From a virus, in the UHGV virus genome UHGV-0129084: a stretch of DNA of 53,693 bases. One strand, written 5' to 3'. Both the position numbers and the translations under genes were made by a program. The notes beneath the pieces are model-generated. The model was not told where the DNA came from. It made no database searches and worked only from the letters and a program-made list of their open reading frames with translations. Shown piece after piece: positions 4,436-53,693 of the stretch. Numbering within the stretch: the first letter of the stretch is position 1; every line of letters starts with the position of its first letter.

Positions 4436-4496
4436 TTTTTATCCTTAACCCATTTTGAGAGTTTTATTGTCGCAATGTCGAAGAGGCGAACAATTT

Positions 4497-5141
4497 CTAA
4501 TGAACGGTCACTCGGCCACAGAACCGGTTTTCTATCTTTTCTACAGCGTTATCTAGCATTCTCATCACTGATCTGGCTCTTGCTTCAACCGTGCGATATC
4601 GGTTGGAAACGACGAAGGTTTGCAGATCTCCCCTTTGCGGATGCAGGTGAATTTTTGTCAGTTCCCCGCACATCAACGCATCAATACGAGCGACATACAG
4701 ACGGTCTAATGATGCTCGTTGTGATCGCAAGTAATCTCGCTCTGAGAGAGCGACTCCCGGGCGTAAGCCAGCAATGGCGTTAAAGTTTGAAATAGCAGTT
4801 TTGTGGCAAAACTTTTCGATATCGAGGGCTAACTCAATACACCGATCTTCATTTGTATGGCCGACCAAATCCAACGTGTAGGCCATAACATCAGCAGGTG
4901 TGCGATCGATAACAAAGCCTTCAACACCACGCGTAAGTAGCTCTATATGCTTTGCTATTTCCATTTGAATCTGAAGCCGCTCATATAGAGGCATAGAATC
5001 ACCTACTCGAACACCGAGGCGGCTCATCAAACTTCCGACACCAGCATCCACGTAAGGGATTCCGTAATGTTTGTCGATATATTTAGCCAGGGTTGTTTTC
5101 CCACTGCCCTGAGCACCAGTGATCCCAATCCGGTAATCCAT
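4497..5141 (-). CDS. P-loop nucleotide kinase-like protein (possible dNMP kinase)
   Basis: N-terminal Walker A GITGAQGSGKTTLA; 214 aa; start overlaps DHFR stop (ATGA at 5141). Confidence 0.5.
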   Translation of the reverse strand: MDYRIGITGAQGSGKTTLAKYIDKHYGIPYVDAGVGSLMSRLGVRVGDSMPLYERLQIQMEIAKHIELLTRGVEGFVIDRTPADVMAYTLDLVGHTNEDRCIELALDIEKFCHKTAISNFNAIAGLRPGVALSERDYLRSQRASLDRLYVARIDALMCGELTKIHLHPQRGDLQTFVVSNRYRTVEARARSVMRMLDNAVEKIENRFCGRVTVH

Positions 5142-5617
5142 TACGACCTTCTGTATACGATCTGCGAAAAGCCAGGCTCTTCCTCGCTGGCTCGTTGGGT
5201 ATAAGCTGTTTCAACAGGCACAAAGCCTAAATTACGCATCATGCTTGCAGGGAAGAATGCATCGGCGTTTGGCACATCAACGCCGATGTGGGAGAGCCAA
5301 ATCTCTTCAACATGCGGCATGAATAGCGAGTAAATTTGTTCCCCGCCAATCACCCACACAGGCTCTGGTAATCGCAACACATCATCCACACCAGCAGGGT
5401 AGAATCCATTTGGTACAAAGCCATGAGAGCGCGTCAAAACGAGGTTATGACGCTCTGGAAGAGGGCGTTTGAGACTTTCCATCGTTTTACGCCCCATAAC
5501 GACAGTGGCGTTTTTGGTGAGTCTCTTAAATAGCTTCAGATCGGTAGAACAACGCCAGGGTAGTTCATTCGCTATGCCGATCTCATAGTTACGGCCAACA
5601 GCAGCTATCATCTTCAT
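5141..5617 (-). CDS. folA: Dihydrofolate reductase
   Basis: 158 aa; MIAAVGRNYEIG...LPW...VVMGRKT pattern diagnostic of DHFR. Confidence 0.85.
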   Translation of the reverse strand: MKMIAAVGRNYEIGIANELPWRCSTDLKLFKRLTKNATVVMGRKTMESLKRPLPERHNLVLTRSHGFVPNGFYPAGVDDVLRLPEPVWVIGGEQIYSLFMPHVEEIWLSHIGVDVPNADAFFPASMMRNLGFVPVETAYTQRASEEEPGFSQIVYRRS

Positions 5618-6027
5618 TTGCTCACCTCATAGATGACCGGTCGATGGTGAGAGTCAGCTAAAGCGGCACGGAGTCGAGGATCGTGCACCAGCGCAGCGAT
5701 AAGCAGATCGCCTTTATGCTCCGCTAATGTGCGCTTAATATGCTTCTCATAACTGGTGCCATTCGGTACTAGATGAAGCCAGTCATAATCAACACCAAAA
5801 TCTTTCAGCCATCGTTTAGTGGGCGCTTCAAGAGTTTCAGAGCGGCTACTGATAAGCACCACTTCAGCCCCTGAGCGAGCAAAACCACGCAACATACGGC
5901 TGGTGGGGAAAATGAGTTCATCACCGGCAATGAATTGGCCTGCATCCGAGTCAGATACAGATTTACGATGGCTGGTATTTGCCAGCACACCTTCAATTTC
6001 GCATAAGACATACATACCTCTTGCCAT
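5614..6027 (-). CDS. Hypothetical protein, possibly HAD-like phosphatase/nucleotidase
   Basis: ORF 5614..6123 overlaps thyA; start moved to in-frame ATG at 6027 (MARGMYVLCEIEGVL), 1 nt after the thyA stop; LCEIEGVL loosely resembles HAD motif I with D->E. Confidence 0.3.
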   Translation of the reverse strand: MARGMYVLCEIEGVLANTSHRKSVSDSDAGQFIAGDELIFPTSRMLRGFARSGAEVVLISSRSETLEAPTKRWLKDFGVDYDWLHLVPNGTSYEKHIKRTLAEHKGDLLIAALVHDPRLRAALADSHHRPVIYEVSK

Positions 6028-6028
6028 A

Positions 6029-7159
6029 TCACACCGCCACTGGAACCTTGATCCACGGTAGAGGGGCATAGCCAAGAATAAGAATCTCGTCCCATTTGAA
6101 ATCATCCAGCTCAGACCATTCATTAGGGAATATAACGACCGGATCTGAATGCTCTGGAGCCTGTCGTTGCATTAGCTCACACACACCTTCCATGTGGTTG
6201 TTGTACAAATGCACGTCAAAGCCAAAATGCACAAATGCACCGGCCATGTGACCCGTAATCTTCGCGAGAAAATGAGTGAGAATGCCATAGCCAGCAATAT
6301 TGAATGGCATACCAACAAAAGTGTCTACGCTACGCTGTACGAGGCAGGAGTTGAGGATGCGTTTGGGGATTCCAAGTGCATCCAGTTCAGTTTCAGTAAC
6401 ACTGCCGTCCATCTCCAGATCGTATAGCATCTTGGTGTAGATAGACTCATAACCGAGGCGACTGTGTTGAAGACCAATGTCAGTTGCCATCGTTAAACGG
6501 GTTTCAAAATCCAGTTCACGACTCCACAAAGAGAAGACAAAGTGGCAAGGTGGCAGTTTCATATCCTCAAGCTCGCCTACGTTCCATGCGTTAAGCATGA
6601 TGCGACGATCGGTAGGGTTCGTGCGCAGTGTATCGACAATACGCTGTAGCTGATCGATTTCACGGGACAGCACTACGCGATCTTCACTGATACCCAGGTA
6701 TCCCTCGACTTTGTACCCGCGTTCACGGAAAGTAGCGATCTTGCTCAGATATTCACTATGGCTCACGATGCGGGTATCTTCCCATCGACGCCACTGCTTA
6801 CCGTAAACCGGCCCCAAATCGCCATTCTCATCGGCCCATGCATCCCAAATCTTAACGCCGTTATCCTTGAGAAATTGGATGTTGCCCGTGCCTTTCAGAT
6901 ACCACTCAAGTTCGACAAGCAGTGGCTTAAGATTTACCGCCTTTCCAGAAATAAGCGGCACAGTCCCACCAGTAAGCATGTAGTAAGAGGGAACGTAGCA
7001 GGTGCTTAAAGTACCAGTGCCTGTGCGATCATCAGCCTGCACGCCGCTTTTAAGCACCGTCTCAATAACTTTTGCATACGATGCGTTTGTTACCTGACCG
7101 TTCGTATGCTCACGATTCAAAAGGAGTGACACAAAAACCTCACAAAGATAAGTAACCAC
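6029..7159 (-). CDS. thyA: Thymidylate synthase (ThyA) with two internal insertions
   Basis: DRTGTGT, LLVELEWYLKG, GDLGPVYGKQWRRW, catalytic LPPCH; 376 aa, longer than typical ThyA. Start uncertain: ORF begins with GTG at 7159, alternative GTG at 7132. Confidence 0.85.
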   Translation of the reverse strand: MVTYLCEVFVSLLLNREHTNGQVTNASYAKVIETVLKSGVQADDRTGTGTLSTCYVPSYYMLTGGTVPLISGKAVNLKPLLVELEWYLKGTGNIQFLKDNGVKIWDAWADENGDLGPVYGKQWRRWEDTRIVSHSEYLSKIATFRERGYKVEGYLGISEDRVVLSREIDQLQRIVDTLRTNPTDRRIMLNAWNVGELEDMKLPPCHFVFSLWSRELDFETRLTMATDIGLQHSRLGYESIYTKMLYDLEMDGSVTETELDALGIPKRILNSCLVQRSVDTFVGMPFNIAGYGILTHFLAKITGHMAGAFVHFGFDVHLYNNHMEGVCELMQRQAPEHSDPVVIFPNEWSELDDFKWDEILILGYAPLPWIKVPVAV

Positions 7160-46383: not shown

Positions 46384-47061
46384 ATGAAGGCGAATAAGTC
46401 AGCGGCACTTTTAGTTTTATTATTAGCCGGTTGCGCGCAACAAAGTAACCCACAACAAAATGCCACTGTAAAACCAATCCTAACCCAAGAAATATTGCCT
46501 TCCTCTAACGTAGAGTCAAAGGCGAAAATGGGTGACCTTGTCGTTTATAACACGTTTGTGTCCACGTTAAAAACCGACATGGTCACTCTTGGTAACGCTT
46601 CTGGTTCGATGTCTGAGATTAAAGCGGGCAACTACTGCCACGTTGGTGGTGGGGTCTACCGGAACTTTGAAGACTCAAAAGCTGTTGGCCTGAAGGCCAT
46701 TACAGGGCAGGTAGTGAGCCACACTGATAACGTCAAGTATGACAAGGTCAAAAACACTATATCTCCTCCCAACACTACGACGTTCGACGCCTCTGAAATA
46801 TCCATAAAATTCGCACAAAATGTCCCCTGCCATGTAGAGAAAAAGATTGTTCAGTCTATTTCTTATAATGGCAAAAGTGGCGACGACCTTAAATTTATTT
46901 ATTCCGAAAGCTACCCAAGTTTAGATGAAACTAAGACTGAGTTTTCAGTGCCTCTTTCCGATGCAAAAACCAAAGTCGAATATAAAAACCTGGCATTCAA
47001 GGTTATTGAAATGGAGGGTACTACAATCCGCTACTATGTATTACCATCTGGCAATAAATAA
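46384..47061 (+). CDS. Lipoprotein (225 aa)
   Basis: Signal peptide with lipobox MKANKSAALLVLLLAGC; plus-strand gene in a minus-strand context; AAGGGA RBS upstream. Confidence 0.6.
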   Translation: MKANKSAALLVLLLAGCAQQSNPQQNATVKPILTQEILPSSNVESKAKMGDLVVYNTFVSTLKTDMVTLGNASGSMSEIKAGNYCHVGGGVYRNFEDSKAVGLKAITGQVVSHTDNVKYDKVKNTISPPNTTTFDASEISIKFAQNVPCHVEKKIVQSISYNGKSGDDLKFIYSESYPSLDETKTEFSVPLSDAKTKVEYKNLAFKVIEMEGTTIRYYVLPSGNK

Positions 47062-48127: not shown

Positions 48128-48445
48128 TGGAGAGTTCCCTTTGCGTATATAATTATCGTCTGAAACAACTTGTTTTCTTATATGTGATATAGCCTAAATG
48201 CCTACGGCTGCGGTGTAAAGGTTAAATGGTAGGTTGTGATTAACAATTGGCAAACATAGCTTGTATTTGTCTGTTGAAAAAAGTAACAATGACATCTATA
48301 TTACAAGTACGGTGATATGCCGTACACAATTTGATAATGCACACGTAATGGGCTATAGCCTTTTAAAGTAATTTTTGAGTCGAAAACTCAGTTTGAACAG
48401 AGGAGATTGATGGCCTTCCTACATCACGGCCATCAGGAGGAATAC

Positions 48446-48715
48446 ATGTCAGCACTAAAAAAGCAGCGCATCGATTTGAGATTAACCGATGACGATAAAA
48501 GCATCATCGAGGAAGCTGCCGCAATGTCTAACCAGAGCATTACTCAGTTTATGGTTAGCAGTGCATCTGAACGTGCCGTGAAAGTTATAGAGCAACACCG
48601 TAGACTAGTTCTGAATGAAGAATCCTGGAATCTGGTTATGGACGCTATAAGCAATCCTCCGGCACCGAACGACAAGCTGAAACGAGCTGCTGATCGTCTG
48701 AAAAGCATGGAGTAG
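48446..48715 (+). CDS. Antitoxin, DUF1778/TacA-like (ribbon-helix-helix)
   Basis: MSALKKQRIDLRLTDDDKSIIEEAAAMSNQSITQFMV; start chosen at ATG 48446 with AGGAGG RBS; directly upstream of the GNAT gene. Confidence 0.65.
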   Translation: MSALKKQRIDLRLTDDDKSIIEEAAAMSNQSITQFMVSSASERAVKVIEQHRRLVLNEESWNLVMDAISNPPAPNDKLKRAADRLKSME

Positions 48716-48722
48716 TTTACTC

Positions 48723-49244
48723 GTGGATAATATAAAGATAGAAATTTTCTCTGGAGAGAAACATTATGATTTGAATGGTTTTGATTGCGGTGAAGAATCA
48801 CTAAATGCCTTTTTAACCAACCACTTAAAAAGGCAGCATGAGGGAAAAATTCTTCGCGCTTATGTGCTTTGCACGAAAGAAGGCAGACCAAAAGTGTTAG
48901 GGTATTACACTTTGTCAGGTAGCTGCTTTGAAAAGGAGTCCTTACCTTCAAGAAGCCAGCAAAAGAAGGTACCTTATCGGAATGTTCCAAGTGTTACTTT
49001 GGGTAGGCTGGCTTTGGACAAGTCCCTTCAAGGTCAAGGATTTGGCTCAATGCTTGTAACACATGCAATGCGCGTTGTGTACAATGCATCTCTTGCTGTA
49101 GGCATTCATGGACTTTTCGTTGAGGCGTTAAATGACAAAGCCAAGGCGTTTTATAAAAGTTTAGACTTTATCCAGCTGGTTGGTAACAACGAGCGTTCTT
49201 TGTTCTATCCTACAAAATCTATCGAAAAATTGTTCGAAGAATAA
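48723..49244 (+). CDS. GNAT-family acetyltransferase toxin (TacT/AtaT-like)
   Basis: 173 aa; acetyl-CoA binding-like segment RLALDKSLQGQGFGSML; two-gene arrangement with DUF1778 antitoxin; GTG start at 48723. Confidence 0.65.
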   Translation: MDNIKIEIFSGEKHYDLNGFDCGEESLNAFLTNHLKRQHEGKILRAYVLCTKEGRPKVLGYYTLSGSCFEKESLPSRSQQKKVPYRNVPSVTLGRLALDKSLQGQGFGSMLVTHAMRVVYNASLAVGIHGLFVEALNDKAKAFYKSLDFIQLVGNNERSLFYPTKSIEKLFEE

Positions 49245-49412
49245 TGTGTTCCCCTCATTTGAGGGGAACTTCGACATCACCAACCACAAACCCTCTCTCC
49301 CATCGTATTGTGAAAAAGGATTTGGCGTTCGGTTTCTTCAGTCATTACATCATTATTGCTGATATAGATAGGCTCAGCCCCATCGCAGAACAACACGCTG
49401 GCTGTTTGTGGT

Positions 49413-49664
49413 TTAATGACGCACCCACTTATCATACAACTCACGATGAACGGCAGAAGCATCTTTCTGACGTATTTTACTGCTCGTCTCATTCACCACT
49501 TTCACTGTGTTTTGAAGTCGTTTTCTGTCTTCCTGTTTTGCCTTCTCTTCCATTGCTCGTCGCGCCGCATTCCCGCCCATCGTGTAAGCGCCGACAAGAA
49601 CGAAAAGAACGGCAGCCAGCGTAATCAAAGCAACTTTTAGCTTTGTCATCAGGCTGCCTAGCAT
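49413..49664 (-). CDS. Membrane protein with N-terminal TM helix and charged coiled-coil tail (spanin-like, speculative)
   Basis: KVALITLAAVLFVLVGAYT hydrophobic segment followed by EEKAKQEDRKRLQ. Confidence 0.35.
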   Translation of the reverse strand: MLGSLMTKLKVALITLAAVLFVLVGAYTMGGNAARRAMEEKAKQEDRKRLQNTVKVVNETSSKIRQKDASAVHRELYDKWVRH

Positions 49665-49665
49665 A

Positions 49666-50385
49666 TTAGACCATCCCTTTCTGGTGTCTTCTTACCTGCG
49701 ACCAGGCAATGAATCCGGCCACAACAATAGTGGCAATGCCGAAGATGATGCGTACTGTATCCCCGCTAGAGATATGACCTTGTGCCTTATCCATAGCAGC
49801 GGAAACCTGCGGCATAACATCGGCCAGCTGCGCCAGACCAATACCTGCTGTAACAGTTGCGCCTGCGGTTTCTTTAGTTACAGGAACAGCCTTCACGGTT
49901 TTCACCGGCTTAACAACGCCAGCTCGACGCAGACCTTCCTCAATAACTTCTGCCGCATACCAGGTGTTCAGCGTTTTTAGCGGGCCTCGGCCATTCTCGT
50001 GGCGAATGATTGCCTCAACCAAAGGTCGAAGGATGTCGTAATCATGCAGATCGATGATCATGTCTGCGGTTACACCAACGGCTTTAGACACCTCATTAAT
50101 GTAGGCGTCAGTATTGTTTTCATTCGGCGGTGCCCAACGTTCAATAACTTCACGAATGGTATCGATACTTGAGCCGTCTTTTGCGCGACGTTTGTCGTGG
50201 TAGGTAATTAGAGTCACCGCCAGCGCACGAATCCCCCAAACAGGGTCTTTAAACGTGCAAAAGCGCGGTTCGGCAGGGTTGTCGATTAGCCCCTGCCACG
50301 GCGAACCTTTGTCGAGGTTGCCAGGGTTGTTATTACGAATGCCTCTCGGAGTTTTCATCCTTGATCTCCTGTTATTGCAGTCCAC
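49666..50385 (-). CDS. Hypothetical membrane-anchored protein (239 aa), possible envelope/lysis function
   Basis: GIRNNNPGNL motif near the N-terminus, C-terminal TM segment RIIFGIATIVVAGFIAW; function not assigned. Confidence 0.35.
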   Translation of the reverse strand: MDCNNRRSRMKTPRGIRNNNPGNLDKGSPWQGLIDNPAEPRFCTFKDPVWGIRALAVTLITYHDKRRAKDGSSIDTIREVIERWAPPNENNTDAYINEVSKAVGVTADMIIDLHDYDILRPLVEAIIRHENGRGPLKTLNTWYAAEVIEEGLRRAGVVKPVKTVKAVPVTKETAGATVTAGIGLAQLADVMPQVSAAMDKAQGHISSGDTVRIIFGIATIVVAGFIAWSQVRRHQKGMV

Positions 50386-50707
50386 TTTTTACGCCATACG
50401 CGGCTAACCCCAAAAGCAGTGCGGTAATAATGAACGACGTTATTTTAGAAACAATGCCGCCAAAGAACCCACTTGAGATGGAATCTAACCGGTTAAGGAG
50501 TTTGTCCAGATTGGAGTGTTGAATACTATGTTGCGCCGGGGTCATATCACCAAAGTAGGTTTTCAGCTGATCATTGACCTCCTGGCCAATTTCTTCACGT
50601 AGCTCTTTACCTAATTTGCCAACAACCTCCCGAGCAACGATCGCGGCAATACGCTCAACTTGCTCTGTTGTAACGCCCGCCATCTCGTTCGACATGTTTT
50701 CCTCCAT
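50372..50707 (-). CDS. Tail-anchored small membrane protein (111 aa)
   Basis: Single C-terminal TM segment ITSFIITALLLGLAAYGV; overlaps the downstream gene by 14 nt. Confidence 0.35.
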   Translation of the reverse strand: MEENMSNEMAGVTTEQVERIAAIVAREVVGKLGKELREEIGQEVNDQLKTYFGDMTPAQHSIQHSNLDKLLNRLDSISSGFFGGIVSKITSFIITALLLGLAAYGVKSGLQ

Positions 50708-50769
50708 GAAAAGTCAAATCGGGATGGCGGTTTTATATCATAAAACGCCCACACTTGGTAGGTAAGTAC

Positions 50770-51615
50770 TTACACATGAGCGCCGTAAATTGCCCCAGCT
50801 TTAGTCCAAGTTGGAGCATTACCGGTAACAGCTTTACCAGCTGCGCCACCTCCGTACAATGTCCCCACTCGTCCAGTTGCAGCGGCACCAGCAGCCCCCA
50901 CATTACCTCCACTACCGCATGTATATTGGACAGCATTAGAGCCGATCACATATTGAGCGCCAATCCCGGCAGCGGTTAGAGTGCCAGAAGTTGCCGCCCG
51001 CGAATTTGAAGCTGGTGGCCTTGTAGTGTTTGCAACACCAAACGGGCGACCGCCCCCACCCATACCACCATCGAGTGAGCTACCGCCACCGCCACCGCCA
51101 CCGCCGGCAATAGCGCCATTATTGGTTATTCTTAAACGGGTCCCAATTCCGTTGTTAATAGCAGTGCCACCGGCAGCACCGCCACCTTTAACGCCACCAT
51201 TACCGCCACGGCCATAGACAGTTACACCTGCGTTGATTACCAGGCTGATATAAGAGTTGGTAAGCGAACTTGGGAAATCTAAACATGGCACGCCGCTACT
51301 GGACGACACCAGATCCCCTGTAATGGTAACAACGACTGGCGTCGCCCCCTGGGATTTTAAATAGTTGATCAGTGTGTCTTTGTTGTAGTTATGATTCGCA
51401 CCGATGCTGTACTGAACTTCTTTAGATCGCCCGGCCATTTGAGACATTGAACCAGCCGCTGGCAGTTGCACCGCCGTTCGAGCCGCACTCATCCATCTCT
51501 GGCCTGTCACACTGACAGCCGAAGACCCAATCCAACCGGGAACACCGACAATTGGCACATCTAATCTCCTTTTTGATGTGAATATCCTGAATTGGTGAGG
51601 GTGGCCCCTCACCAT
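50770..51615 (-). CDS. Glycine-rich tail-fibre-associated protein (gp38-like adhesin, speculative)
   Basis: 281 aa; poly-Gly tracts (GGGGGGGGSSLDGGMGGGGRP) separated by short segments; immediately downstream of the tail fibre gene. Confidence 0.45.
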   Translation of the reverse strand: MVRGHPHQFRIFTSKRRLDVPIVGVPGWIGSSAVSVTGQRWMSAARTAVQLPAAGSMSQMAGRSKEVQYSIGANHNYNKDTLINYLKSQGATPVVVTITGDLVSSSSGVPCLDFPSSLTNSYISLVINAGVTVYGRGGNGGVKGGGAAGGTAINNGIGTRLRITNNGAIAGGGGGGGGSSLDGGMGGGGRPFGVANTTRPPASNSRAATSGTLTAAGIGAQYVIGSNAVQYTCGSGGNVGAAGAAATGRVGTLYGGGAAGKAVTGNAPTWTKAGAIYGAHV

Positions 51616-51624
51616 TCACCTTGA

Positions 51625-53693
51625 TTACATTTTTGCCTTCAGTTCGCGCACTTCCTCGCGCAGCTCTTTGACAGCCTCGACCAACATGCCGATAACGCCG
51701 TTGTAGTTAAGACGCAGACGAGGCTCTCCTGACTGATCGTTATGGTCAACCGTTACCAGTTCAGGCTGAACATTCTGGACGTCCTGAGCGATGAGGCCGC
51801 CAGACTGCTCATACCGGTCACAGACCTGAATCTCGTACAGAACACCTTCGATCCGATCCAGCTTGTCGAGCGCTCGTTCAATCTTGCGAATATTGCGTTT
51901 GCTACGACGGTCAGAGCGGATATAAACGTCATTAAAGCTGCCATTACCGCCACAAACCCAAGTACCATCATTCTGGAGGTATGCGTTCGCATCCGTGCCG
52001 TTTTCGGTACGTGAGTTGTTGATCATGTAAAAACCAAACTGACTGTTTCCCAAGCCACCCAAGAAGAATTTGCGATCCGCGTGGTCTTGTCTCAACAACG
52101 CTTGTGCAGAGCTTGTACTTACAGCGTTCCTCCCGAAGATGACGTTCTGGTTACGCATATCTATCCACGCGCCAGAGCCGCTGTTGATGGAAAAACGGTT
52201 GGCGTAAACCCACGCACTTGACGTGATGTCACCCGTTACACTCAACGGCTTAAGGCTTTGCAGCGTGCTATTAACGAACCTAAAAACATGGGCGCTATTG
52301 GCGTAAACATCCAGAATGCCATCTCCGTTCTGTTTAAAGCCGGTGTCATTGTCACCCAGAACAATGGAATTACCGCCAAGACCATTGACCACACCCAGCC
52401 CAAGACCACCGTTAACAACAGCACCATTGCCCATTGTTACTCTGCCATTAGTGAGATCTACATAAAATGGACGAAGCGAACCTATATCACCATTTTCTCC
52501 CTGGTCTTTTGCTGTCGGGATAAGGTAAAAATTATTTTCGGAACGGCGAAAAATCATCCCGTATGCCGCATCGTAAATGCGTAACCCATCCGTAGAGCGG
52601 ATCTTAAGCTGTCCGGACATCGTACCGCCGCTGTTTTTCATAAATAGCGCATCAATCCAGCCTGCAAATCCCGACTTATTAATGTATAAATTTCCATCAT
52701 TTGCCAGAATGCCTCCACCTTGCGTCTTGAGGGGCTGACTCACATTTTGCAGCGTCAGCACACCAGTCATTGTTCCGCCAGAAATCGGTAACGCACCGAC
52801 ATCAGCCGCAGTGGGTTTATGAGCAGTGGTATAGACCTGCGCCCAACCAGACCAATTCGCTGTCGAAGTATCACGGCGTGAACGAACATAAACCGGTGCA
52901 TGAGCACCATCCGTTCCGCTCCAGCCAATAAGCAACTCGCCCTCACCAATCGCCCCAGCGCCTTTCATGTGGAGAATGTTGCCGTAGGCTGTCGGGGCGC
53001 CATTGTTGTAGGCTTCGTACATTTGAATGCCAGCAGTACCCTGAGTAGAGCCACTTAACGCCGTAACTCGGCCACGAGATACCAGTGTATTAATGTTGAT
53101 ATCGCCTGAGCCATCAAACTTAACACCATTGATGTTTCTCGCTGTTTGCAACTTCGTAGCAGTAGCCGCGTTGCCCGTTGTATTCTGATTACCGGCAGCA
53201 TTAACACCAGGCAAATTAATATTCGCAGTGCCATCGAAGCTAACACCACCGATGGTTCTTGCTGTCTGCAATTTGGTTGCTGTGCTTGCATTACCCGATA
53301 AAGATCCAGTGATACCACTACTCGCGTTTAATTTAGTTGCAATTGTAACATTGCCAGTAGAGTTACTAATTATAAACGGCCTTAAGCTATTGTACGTACC
53401 AAGACTGTTACCCGAATCTGTCAACATAAAATATGTATTTGAGCCATCATTTCGGATAAAGAATCCATAGTTGCCATAGGCAATGCGCAGACCATTCGCC
53501 GATTTTGAAATGATCTCACCAGTAGCCGTTAAACCGCCGTTGAGATTTCCTCCGGTTATTGGTAATGCGCCGACATCCGTGGCGGTCGGTTTAATGTGCG
53601 AACTGTAAATGACATATACCGTTCCATCAGTAAGACCAGTTGGTTTATTCGCTGTATAAGTTGGTGATGTATGAATCGTTACGCTGGCGTTAC
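51625..53693 (-). CDS. Tail fibre protein with C-terminal intramolecular chaperone domain (5' end beyond window)
   Basis: Reading frame stays open upstream of the first ATG (53427) to the window edge; repeated ATKLQTAR motifs; internal repeat LRIAYGNYGFFIRNDGSNTYF vs LRIYDAAYGMIFRRSENNFYL; C-terminal SDRRSKRNIRKIE...LAQDV region matches the S74-type chaperone of tail fibres/endosialidases. Confidence 0.7.
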   Translation of the reverse strand, partial: NASVTIHTSPTYTANKPTGLTDGTVYVIYSSHIKPTATDVGALPITGGNLNGGLTATGEIISKSANGLRIAYGNYGFFIRNDGSNTYFMLTDSGNSLGTYNSLRPFIISNSTGNVTIATKLNASSGITGSLSGNASTATKLQTARTIGGVSFDGTANINLPGVNAAGNQNTTGNAATATKLQTARNINGVKFDGSGDININTLVSRGRVTALSGSTQGTAGIQMYEAYNNGAPTAYGNILHMKGAGAIGEGELLIGWSGTDGAHAPVYVRSRRDTSTANWSGWAQVYTTAHKPTAADVGALPISGGTMTGVLTLQNVSQPLKTQGGGILANDGNLYINKSGFAGWIDALFMKNSGGTMSGQLKIRSTDGLRIYDAAYGMIFRRSENNFYLIPTAKDQGENGDIGSLRPFYVDLTNGRVTMGNGAVVNGGLGLGVVNGLGGNSIVLGDNDTGFKQNGDGILDVYANSAHVFRFVNSTLQSLKPLSVTGDITSSAWVYANRFSINSGSGAWIDMRNQNVIFGRNAVSTSSAQALLRQDHADRKFFLGGLGNSQFGFYMINNSRTENGTDANAYLQNDGTWVCGGNGSFNDVYIRSDRRSKRNIRKIERALDKLDRIEGVLYEIQVCDRYEQSGGLIAQDVQNVQPELVTVDHNDQSGEPRLRLNYNGVIGMLVEAVKELREEVRELKAKM

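Follow-up and report, generated by a model that had tools for sequence, protein, structure and literature searches.

Cleavage of a long tail fibre by its own chaperone, followed by capping with an adhesin, has been known since the 1980s, and the structure has been solved for phage S16; descriptions of this T2/T6/S16-type fibre tip are said to include those of Drexler (1986), Trojet (2011), and Dunne (2018). Phage T4 is the exception—its gp37 has a tip of its own and lacks the chaperone domain Peptidase_S74, and its gp38 is an assembly factor only. Here we analyse the virus genome UHGV-0129084, a stretch of 53,693 nucleotides that we refer to as the window, with a focus on positions 50,770 to 53,693. 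Very likely, this region codes for a distal tail-fibre tip module that belongs to an SSU5-like phage-plasmid and follows the plan of the long tail fibre of T2, T6, and S16.

In S16, the last 113 amino acids (aa) of gp37 are autocleaved, exposing a docking surface for gp38; the cleavage site, DLNVS^SDRRIKK (the caret marks the cut), has been aligned to DVYIR^SDGRLKI of the fPS phages (PMC7917993). Cleavage of gp37 exposes the gp38 docking site in T2, T6, and S16 (PMC7917993, PMC3157838), and T4 has a different arrangement (PMC3157838). In the window, the fibre, gp38, and lysis genes all lie on the minus strand. Our reading draws on the homology of both fibre-tip proteins, the catalytic residues, the junction, the adjacency of the two genes, and the same pairing in T-even phages; from these we infer, by homology, cleavage, capping, and receptor binding in this element, as well as the identity of the receptor. 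The features concerned are the following:

51625..53693, minus strand: 3' part of the tail fibre gene (C-terminal 688 aa), an open frame; the gene continues past the window end.
51628..51915, minus strand: intramolecular chaperone of 96 aa (Pfam Peptidase_S74, PF13884, E-value 4.4e-11), with Ser593 at 51913-51915 and Lys598 at 51898-51900.
51916..51930, minus strand: DVYIR strand, predicted to become the new C-terminus once the chaperone is cut off and to serve as the docking tip for gp38; T2 gp37 shares the VYIR^SD junction exactly.
50770..51558, minus strand: gp38 adhesin, very probably 262 aa from GTG 51558 (Pfam GP38, 2.9e-68, and Gp38_N, 1.2e-14; phrog_2056; 6F45_D).
51433-51558, minus strand: N-terminal attachment domain of gp38, aa 1-42 (Gp38_N, 1.2e-14).
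Within 50770..51558, minus strand: glycine-rich specificity domain of gp38, aa 47-262 (PF05268, 2.9e-68).

The chaperone occupies the extreme C-terminus of the fibre; the Peptidase_S74 match spans aa 593-647 of 688, exceeds the curated 22-bit cut-off, and places profile position 1 on Ser593. The junction reads NDVYIR^SDRRSKRNIRK and contains the dyad S593-D-R-R-S-K598, in which Ser and Lys are five residues apart; the equivalent stretch of S16 is SDRRIK. In an alignment of six fibres—those of the window, its closest relative pCPE35 (the Escherichia coli plasmid pCPE35-IncFIB), SSU5, T2, IME339, and EnA02—S593, D594, and K598 are invariant. The window chaperone also aligns with the chaperone part of S16 gp37 (6F45_A, 7.8e-14). 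An earlier sequence-only reading of this DNA had proposed a self-cleaving chaperone here, and the family match together with the Ser/Lys dyad, whose possible absence that reading had raised, bears the proposal out: the domain is of the self-cleaving type and its dyad is present throughout the alignment.

The glycine-rich protein encoded after the fibre is a full member of the gp38 family. PF05268 is covered over profile positions 1-217 of 218, the N-terminal domain belongs to PF21721, and phrog_2056 (tail fiber protein; host specificity) matches at 1.2e-84; among structures, the S16 gp38 chain 6F45_D matches over aa 8-260 (2.3e-42) and a second gp38 structure, 9v85, at 3.5e-31. The sequence-only reading had gone no further than to call the protein reminiscent of gp38, and its mention of poly-glycine tracts was apt, with glycine making up 22% of all residues and a run of eight (G8) at aa 152-159. 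Identity reaches 75% to one of the two EnA02 copies and 59-66% to the T2 and IME339 proteins. Its two N-terminal tryptophans, W9 and W22, have aligned counterparts in gp38 of both T2 and IME339; the glycine blocks at aa 115-122, 125-131, 146-159, 164-174, 215-225, and 236-244 align with T2, as does the C-terminal end GNAPTW..IYG.xV, and the variable stretches are those between the glycine-rich blocks. As a side observation, the Karamvirus Enterobacter phage EnA02 carries two tandem gp38 genes (4480-6229 of its locus), the first of which, 75% identical to that of the window, lacks both N-terminal tryptophans (G-PN-IG, GQRP).

The length of 281 aa given earlier for this protein has to be corrected. 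It corresponds to the maximal open reading frame (ORF) from ATG 51615, a codon that falls in the 5' arm of a hairpin (see below) and has no Shine-Dalgarno sequence; we rejected it as the start. GTG 51558 has AAAGGAG 6 nucleotides (nt) upstream, agrees with the alignment to T2 gp38 (MAIVGVPGW versus MPIVGVPGW), and yields the length annotated in pCPE35, where the protein is a 262-aa 'receptor-recognizing protein'. The true start is thus very probably GTG 51558, and the protein 262 aa long.

Taken together, these features suggest the following mechanism. Trimerisation of the fibre would be aided by its own C-terminal 96-aa Peptidase_S74 chaperone, which would then release itself by a cut between Arg592 and Ser593, Ser593 acting as the nucleophile and Lys598 as the base. 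Three DVYIR strands would form the tip on which the gp38 attachment domain docks, and the variable loops of the glycine-rich C-terminal domain would make contact with the receptor. T-even relatives that have been characterised use an outer-membrane protein for this purpose (PMC12032242, PMC12892980), and an outer-membrane protein is most likely the host receptor of this element too. Very probably, gp38 helps to define host range.

Starting at the window end (53691), the fibre frame stays open until the stop at 51625. The resulting 688 aa make up the C-terminal 44% of the protein, whose full length in pCPE35 is 1579 aa and whose annotation there is 'tail fiber domain-containing protein'; the counterpart of the window part is aa 932-1579, with 88% identity apart from one 40-aa indel. 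The fibre matches phrog_22609 (tail fiber) at 9.8e-230, and the 600-aa fibre ORF in the program-made ORF list starts at an internal ATG. None of the five proteins searched against NCBIfam gave a match. Upstream of the docking strand the fibre is composed of these segments:

53095..53301, minus strand: 29-aa unit 'GNAxTATKLQTAR-I-GV-FDG' in two copies (aa 131-159 and 171-199; period 40 aa), found by shuffle-tested alignment.
52429..53610, minus strand: larger fibre repeat of the T-even gp34/gp37 type in two copies (aa 28-119 and 286-421; z=17.6; Pfam Gp34_trimer).
52249..52410, minus strand: homologue of the shaft segment that comes last before the cleavage site in T2 gp37 (aa 428-481 of the window fibre; 65% identity to T2 gp37 aa 1179-1232).
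51931..52206, minus strand: Mu S-like domain (aa 496-587), flanked by the T2-like segment on one side and the docking strand on the other (5yvq aa 340-445, domain E-value 9.7e-35).

The repeats named in the sequence-only reading hold up. ATKLQTAR occurs twice, at aa 138 and aa 178 of the 688-aa fibre, and the duplicated segment of roughly 30 aa is the 29-aa unit, whose copies align with a score of 106 versus 26 ± 5 for shuffled sequence (z=15). These short repeats were detected by local alignment with shuffle controls, having escaped a self-BLAST of the fibre (E<=0.01). The fibre of pCPE35 lacks exactly one 40-aa unit found here and has an additional copy further upstream, so the number of units differs among relatives. 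The larger repeat carries the motif 'KPTAxDVGALPI..GLRI..SLRPF', again by local alignment against shuffles, and matches the T4 gp34 structures 4uxe and 5nxh as well as aa 265-337 of Mu S (5yvq); it is the common fibre repeat of the T-even gp34/gp37 type.

The distal part of the shaft is where the window and T2 diverge. In T2 gp37 only 5 residues separate the shaft segment from NVYIR, whereas about 106 aa lie in between in the window fibre, and the Mu S-like domain has no counterpart at that position in T2 gp37. Most of these aa are homologous to Mu S; therefore, the docking strand sits on a Mu S-like domain. The homology ends before the distal tip of Mu.

The DNA of the surrounding 4.3-kb region is 86% identical to SSU5, 95-96% to the Escherichia phages CMS-2020a and Cyrano, and 97% to pCPE35-IncFIB. 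It matches 575 plasmid records, 563 of them non-mobilizable, and the plasmids among the matches listed measure about 105-120 kb and come from Escherichia, Enterobacter, Salmonella, and Citrobacter. The ParA gene, lysis cassette, and tail genes follow the same order as in SSU5 and pCPE35. These DNA matches, together with ParA, a TacA/GNAT gene pair, and tRNA genes, assign the window to an SSU5-like phage-plasmid of E. coli. When the 262-aa gp38 was searched by tblastn, matches came from 87 plasmid records (Enterobacter 40, Escherichia 30, Citrobacter 13, Salmonella 3, Shigella 1). Of these, 84 are non-mobilizable; identity reaches 99.2% in the best match, and the annotation is mostly 'receptor-recognizing protein'. 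In the phage collection, 757 records match gp38, and a sample of 40 drawn from the whole ranking consists entirely of genomes between about 155 and 195 kb, mostly of the T-even type. The fibre tip module is common to virulent T-even phages and temperate phage-plasmids. Literature searches combining SSU5 with gp38 found, within the library covered, no paper on gp38 in SSU5-like elements—the sole match merely cites SSU5—and a paper on gp38 of the Straboviridae does not mention plasmids or temperate phages.

The sequence-only reading regarded the presence of both a chaperone and a gp38-like adhesin as unusual, as if the two were independent, normally alternative solutions that co-occur here in a dual system. 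Seen from T4 alone, where gp38 is a separate assembly chaperone and gp37 lacks Peptidase_S74, the pairing may seem odd; however, Peptidase_S74 terminates all five fibres that we compared upstream of gp38-type genes (for T2, IME339, and EnA02, the fibre whose gene immediately precedes gp38; in addition, the fibres of pCPE35 and SSU5; 3.3e-15 to 1.1e-10), and the literature has cleavage as a prerequisite for gp38 capping. The notion of an unusual dual system is scarcely credible in this light, and the earlier claim falls with it. Because cleavage exposes the docking site, chaperone and adhesin are successive steps of one assembly pathway, and the arrangement is the standard T2-type fibre tip, already present and annotated in many public records. 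It is also very improbable that the glycine-rich protein is a non-virion assembly factor like T4 gp38, leaving the fibre itself to bind the receptor, for example through its Mu S-like domain. This would fit the homology of that domain to the distal part of Mu S, and SSU5, whose fibre end is 95% identical, is reported by Kim et al. (2014) to be specific for the lipopolysaccharide (LPS) core; but a chaperone is already built into the fibre, the Mu S homology stops short of the Mu distal tip, and the complete T2-type specificity domain found here (PF05268) is absent from the 178-aa adhesin of SSU5.

A related proposal would make the fibre a dual-receptor device, with the Mu S-like domain binding LPS and the gp38 cap an outer-membrane protein. 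The position of the Mu S-like stretch, right under the docking strand and absent in T2, invites this idea; receptor binding by this part of Mu S is unsupported, however, the domain may be purely structural, and SSU5 has the same domain with a different adhesin, so that we consider the proposal improbable. Some findings also weigh against a tip of the T2/T6/S16 type, which we nonetheless favour. The chaperone is just 41% identical to that of T2 over the 104 aligned aa (36% over a 139-aa C-terminal alignment), and the roughly 106 mostly Mu S-like aa that precede the docking strand here have no place in T2; hence the geometry of the tip below DVYIR should differ from the solved S16 complex. Beyond the capped tip itself, it is an unlikely prospect that the Mu S-like segment gives a second, LPS-directed site or, more modestly, that T-even phages and phage-plasmids exchange receptor-binding cassettes; if true, the host range of SSU5-like elements would be predictable from gp38 loop sequences.

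The remaining features lie in the spacer between the fibre and gp38 genes, which measures 66 nt from the fibre stop to the gp38 start, and directly downstream of gp38:

51597..51616, minus strand: perfect 8-bp GC-rich hairpin (GGTGAGGG-GCCA-CCCTCACC) in the fibre-gp38 spacer (fold z=-4.2; conserved in pCPE35).
49277..50707, minus strand: lysis cassette directly downstream, context outside the fibre module (PHROG matches; SSU5 annotation).
50372-50707, minus strand: holin (PHROG).
49666-50385, minus strand: endolysin (PHROG).
49413-49664, minus strand: Rz (PHROG).
49277-49492, minus strand: 71-aa ORF overlapping the end of Rz, probably an Rz1-like lipoprotein (lipobox-like ISGC motif; overlapping 'Rz-like spanin' entries in SSU5).

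The spacer hairpin has no T-tail and is therefore not a classical terminator; it may act in RNA stability or processing. T2, too, carries a hairpin at this place between the two genes, unrelated in sequence and with a UUCG loop, and a promoter and terminator scan returned nothing exceeding shuffle expectation. In the lysis cassette, the 71-aa ORF at 49277-49492 is probably the Rz1 o-spanin. SSU5 has genes for a cor-like superinfection exclusion protein, a 'membrane associated' protein, and an 'outer membrane protein' between adhesin and holin (5375-6482 of its locus); the corresponding interval of the window (50708-50769) and of pCPE35 contains no such genes, and the holin follows gp38 almost directly. 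Co-transfer of a T-even 37-38-t block was considered as the cause of this adjacency and rejected, the holin being unrelated to T2 t. Between parA and the lysis cassette, 48407-49244 on the plus strand encodes a TacA-like antitoxin (Pfam TacA1, 8.6e-26) and a GNAT acetyltransferase toxin-like gene. Two different hypothetical genes occupy this position in pCPE35, which makes it look like a variable cargo slot. Further away are four tRNA genes on the minus strand at 37829-38482 (Ser-TGA, Thr-TGT, Tyr-GTA, and Asn-GTT, three of them at the Rfam gathering score) and, at 46384-47061 on the plus strand, opposite to its neighbours, a gene for a predicted 225-aa lipoprotein whose signal peptide ends in LLAGC and which has no Pfam match.

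The host-range requirements of SSU5-like phage-plasmids are poorly understood (PMC9600943). In the phage-plasmid described here, host recognition probably relies on a T2-type gp38 cap, and the variable loops of gp38 are the obvious place to look for the host range of SSU5-like elements. The value of the analysis lies mainly in correct annotation—a gp38 of 262 aa, and a fibre that is incomplete at the window edge. Two points are mildly novel: a Mu S-like domain lies beneath the docking strand, and virulent T-even phages share the module with temperate phage-plasmids.

How, then, does this tip compare with those already described? The T2/T6/S16 tip (PDB 6F45) has the same gene order of fibre followed by gp38 and the same Peptidase_S74 domain with S-D-x-x-x-K, and the gp38 proteins of T2 and S16 likewise combine a tryptophan-bearing attachment domain with a glycine-rich specificity domain; T-even gp38 proteins aligned in full are 59-75% identical to that of the window. 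The setting differs: T2, T6, and S16 are virulent Straboviridae myoviruses, whereas the window element is assigned to temperate SSU5-like phage-plasmids, and its fibre is of a type made as a single protein of about 1579 aa rather than in the gp34-gp37 four-protein arrangement of T-even loci. SSU5 is an element of the same type, and the last 130 or so aa of its fibre (SSU5_021), a stretch that contains DVYIR^SDRRSK and the chaperone, show 95% identity to the window fibre. Its 'tail fiber adhesin' SSU5_022 shares the Gp38_N attachment domain (58% over aa 8-45), but is 178 aa long and lacks the glycine-rich PF05268 domain. Near-identical fibre ends with a different adhesin indicate that SSU5-like elements keep the docking platform constant and swap the adhesin head it carries.

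Two more distant systems are instructive. The chaperones of endosialidases and of T5 pb1 also belong to Peptidase_S74, with the same C-terminal position and Ser/Lys spacing; cleavage there merely frees the mature tip, whereas here, as in T2, the new C-terminus is predicted to dock a separate adhesin. The Mu tail fibre S (5yvq) is homologous in two segments, Mu S aa 265-337 and 340-445; however, Mu S has its own tip and a separate Tfa chaperone, while in the window the Mu-like part is followed by DVYIR, Peptidase_S74, and gp38.

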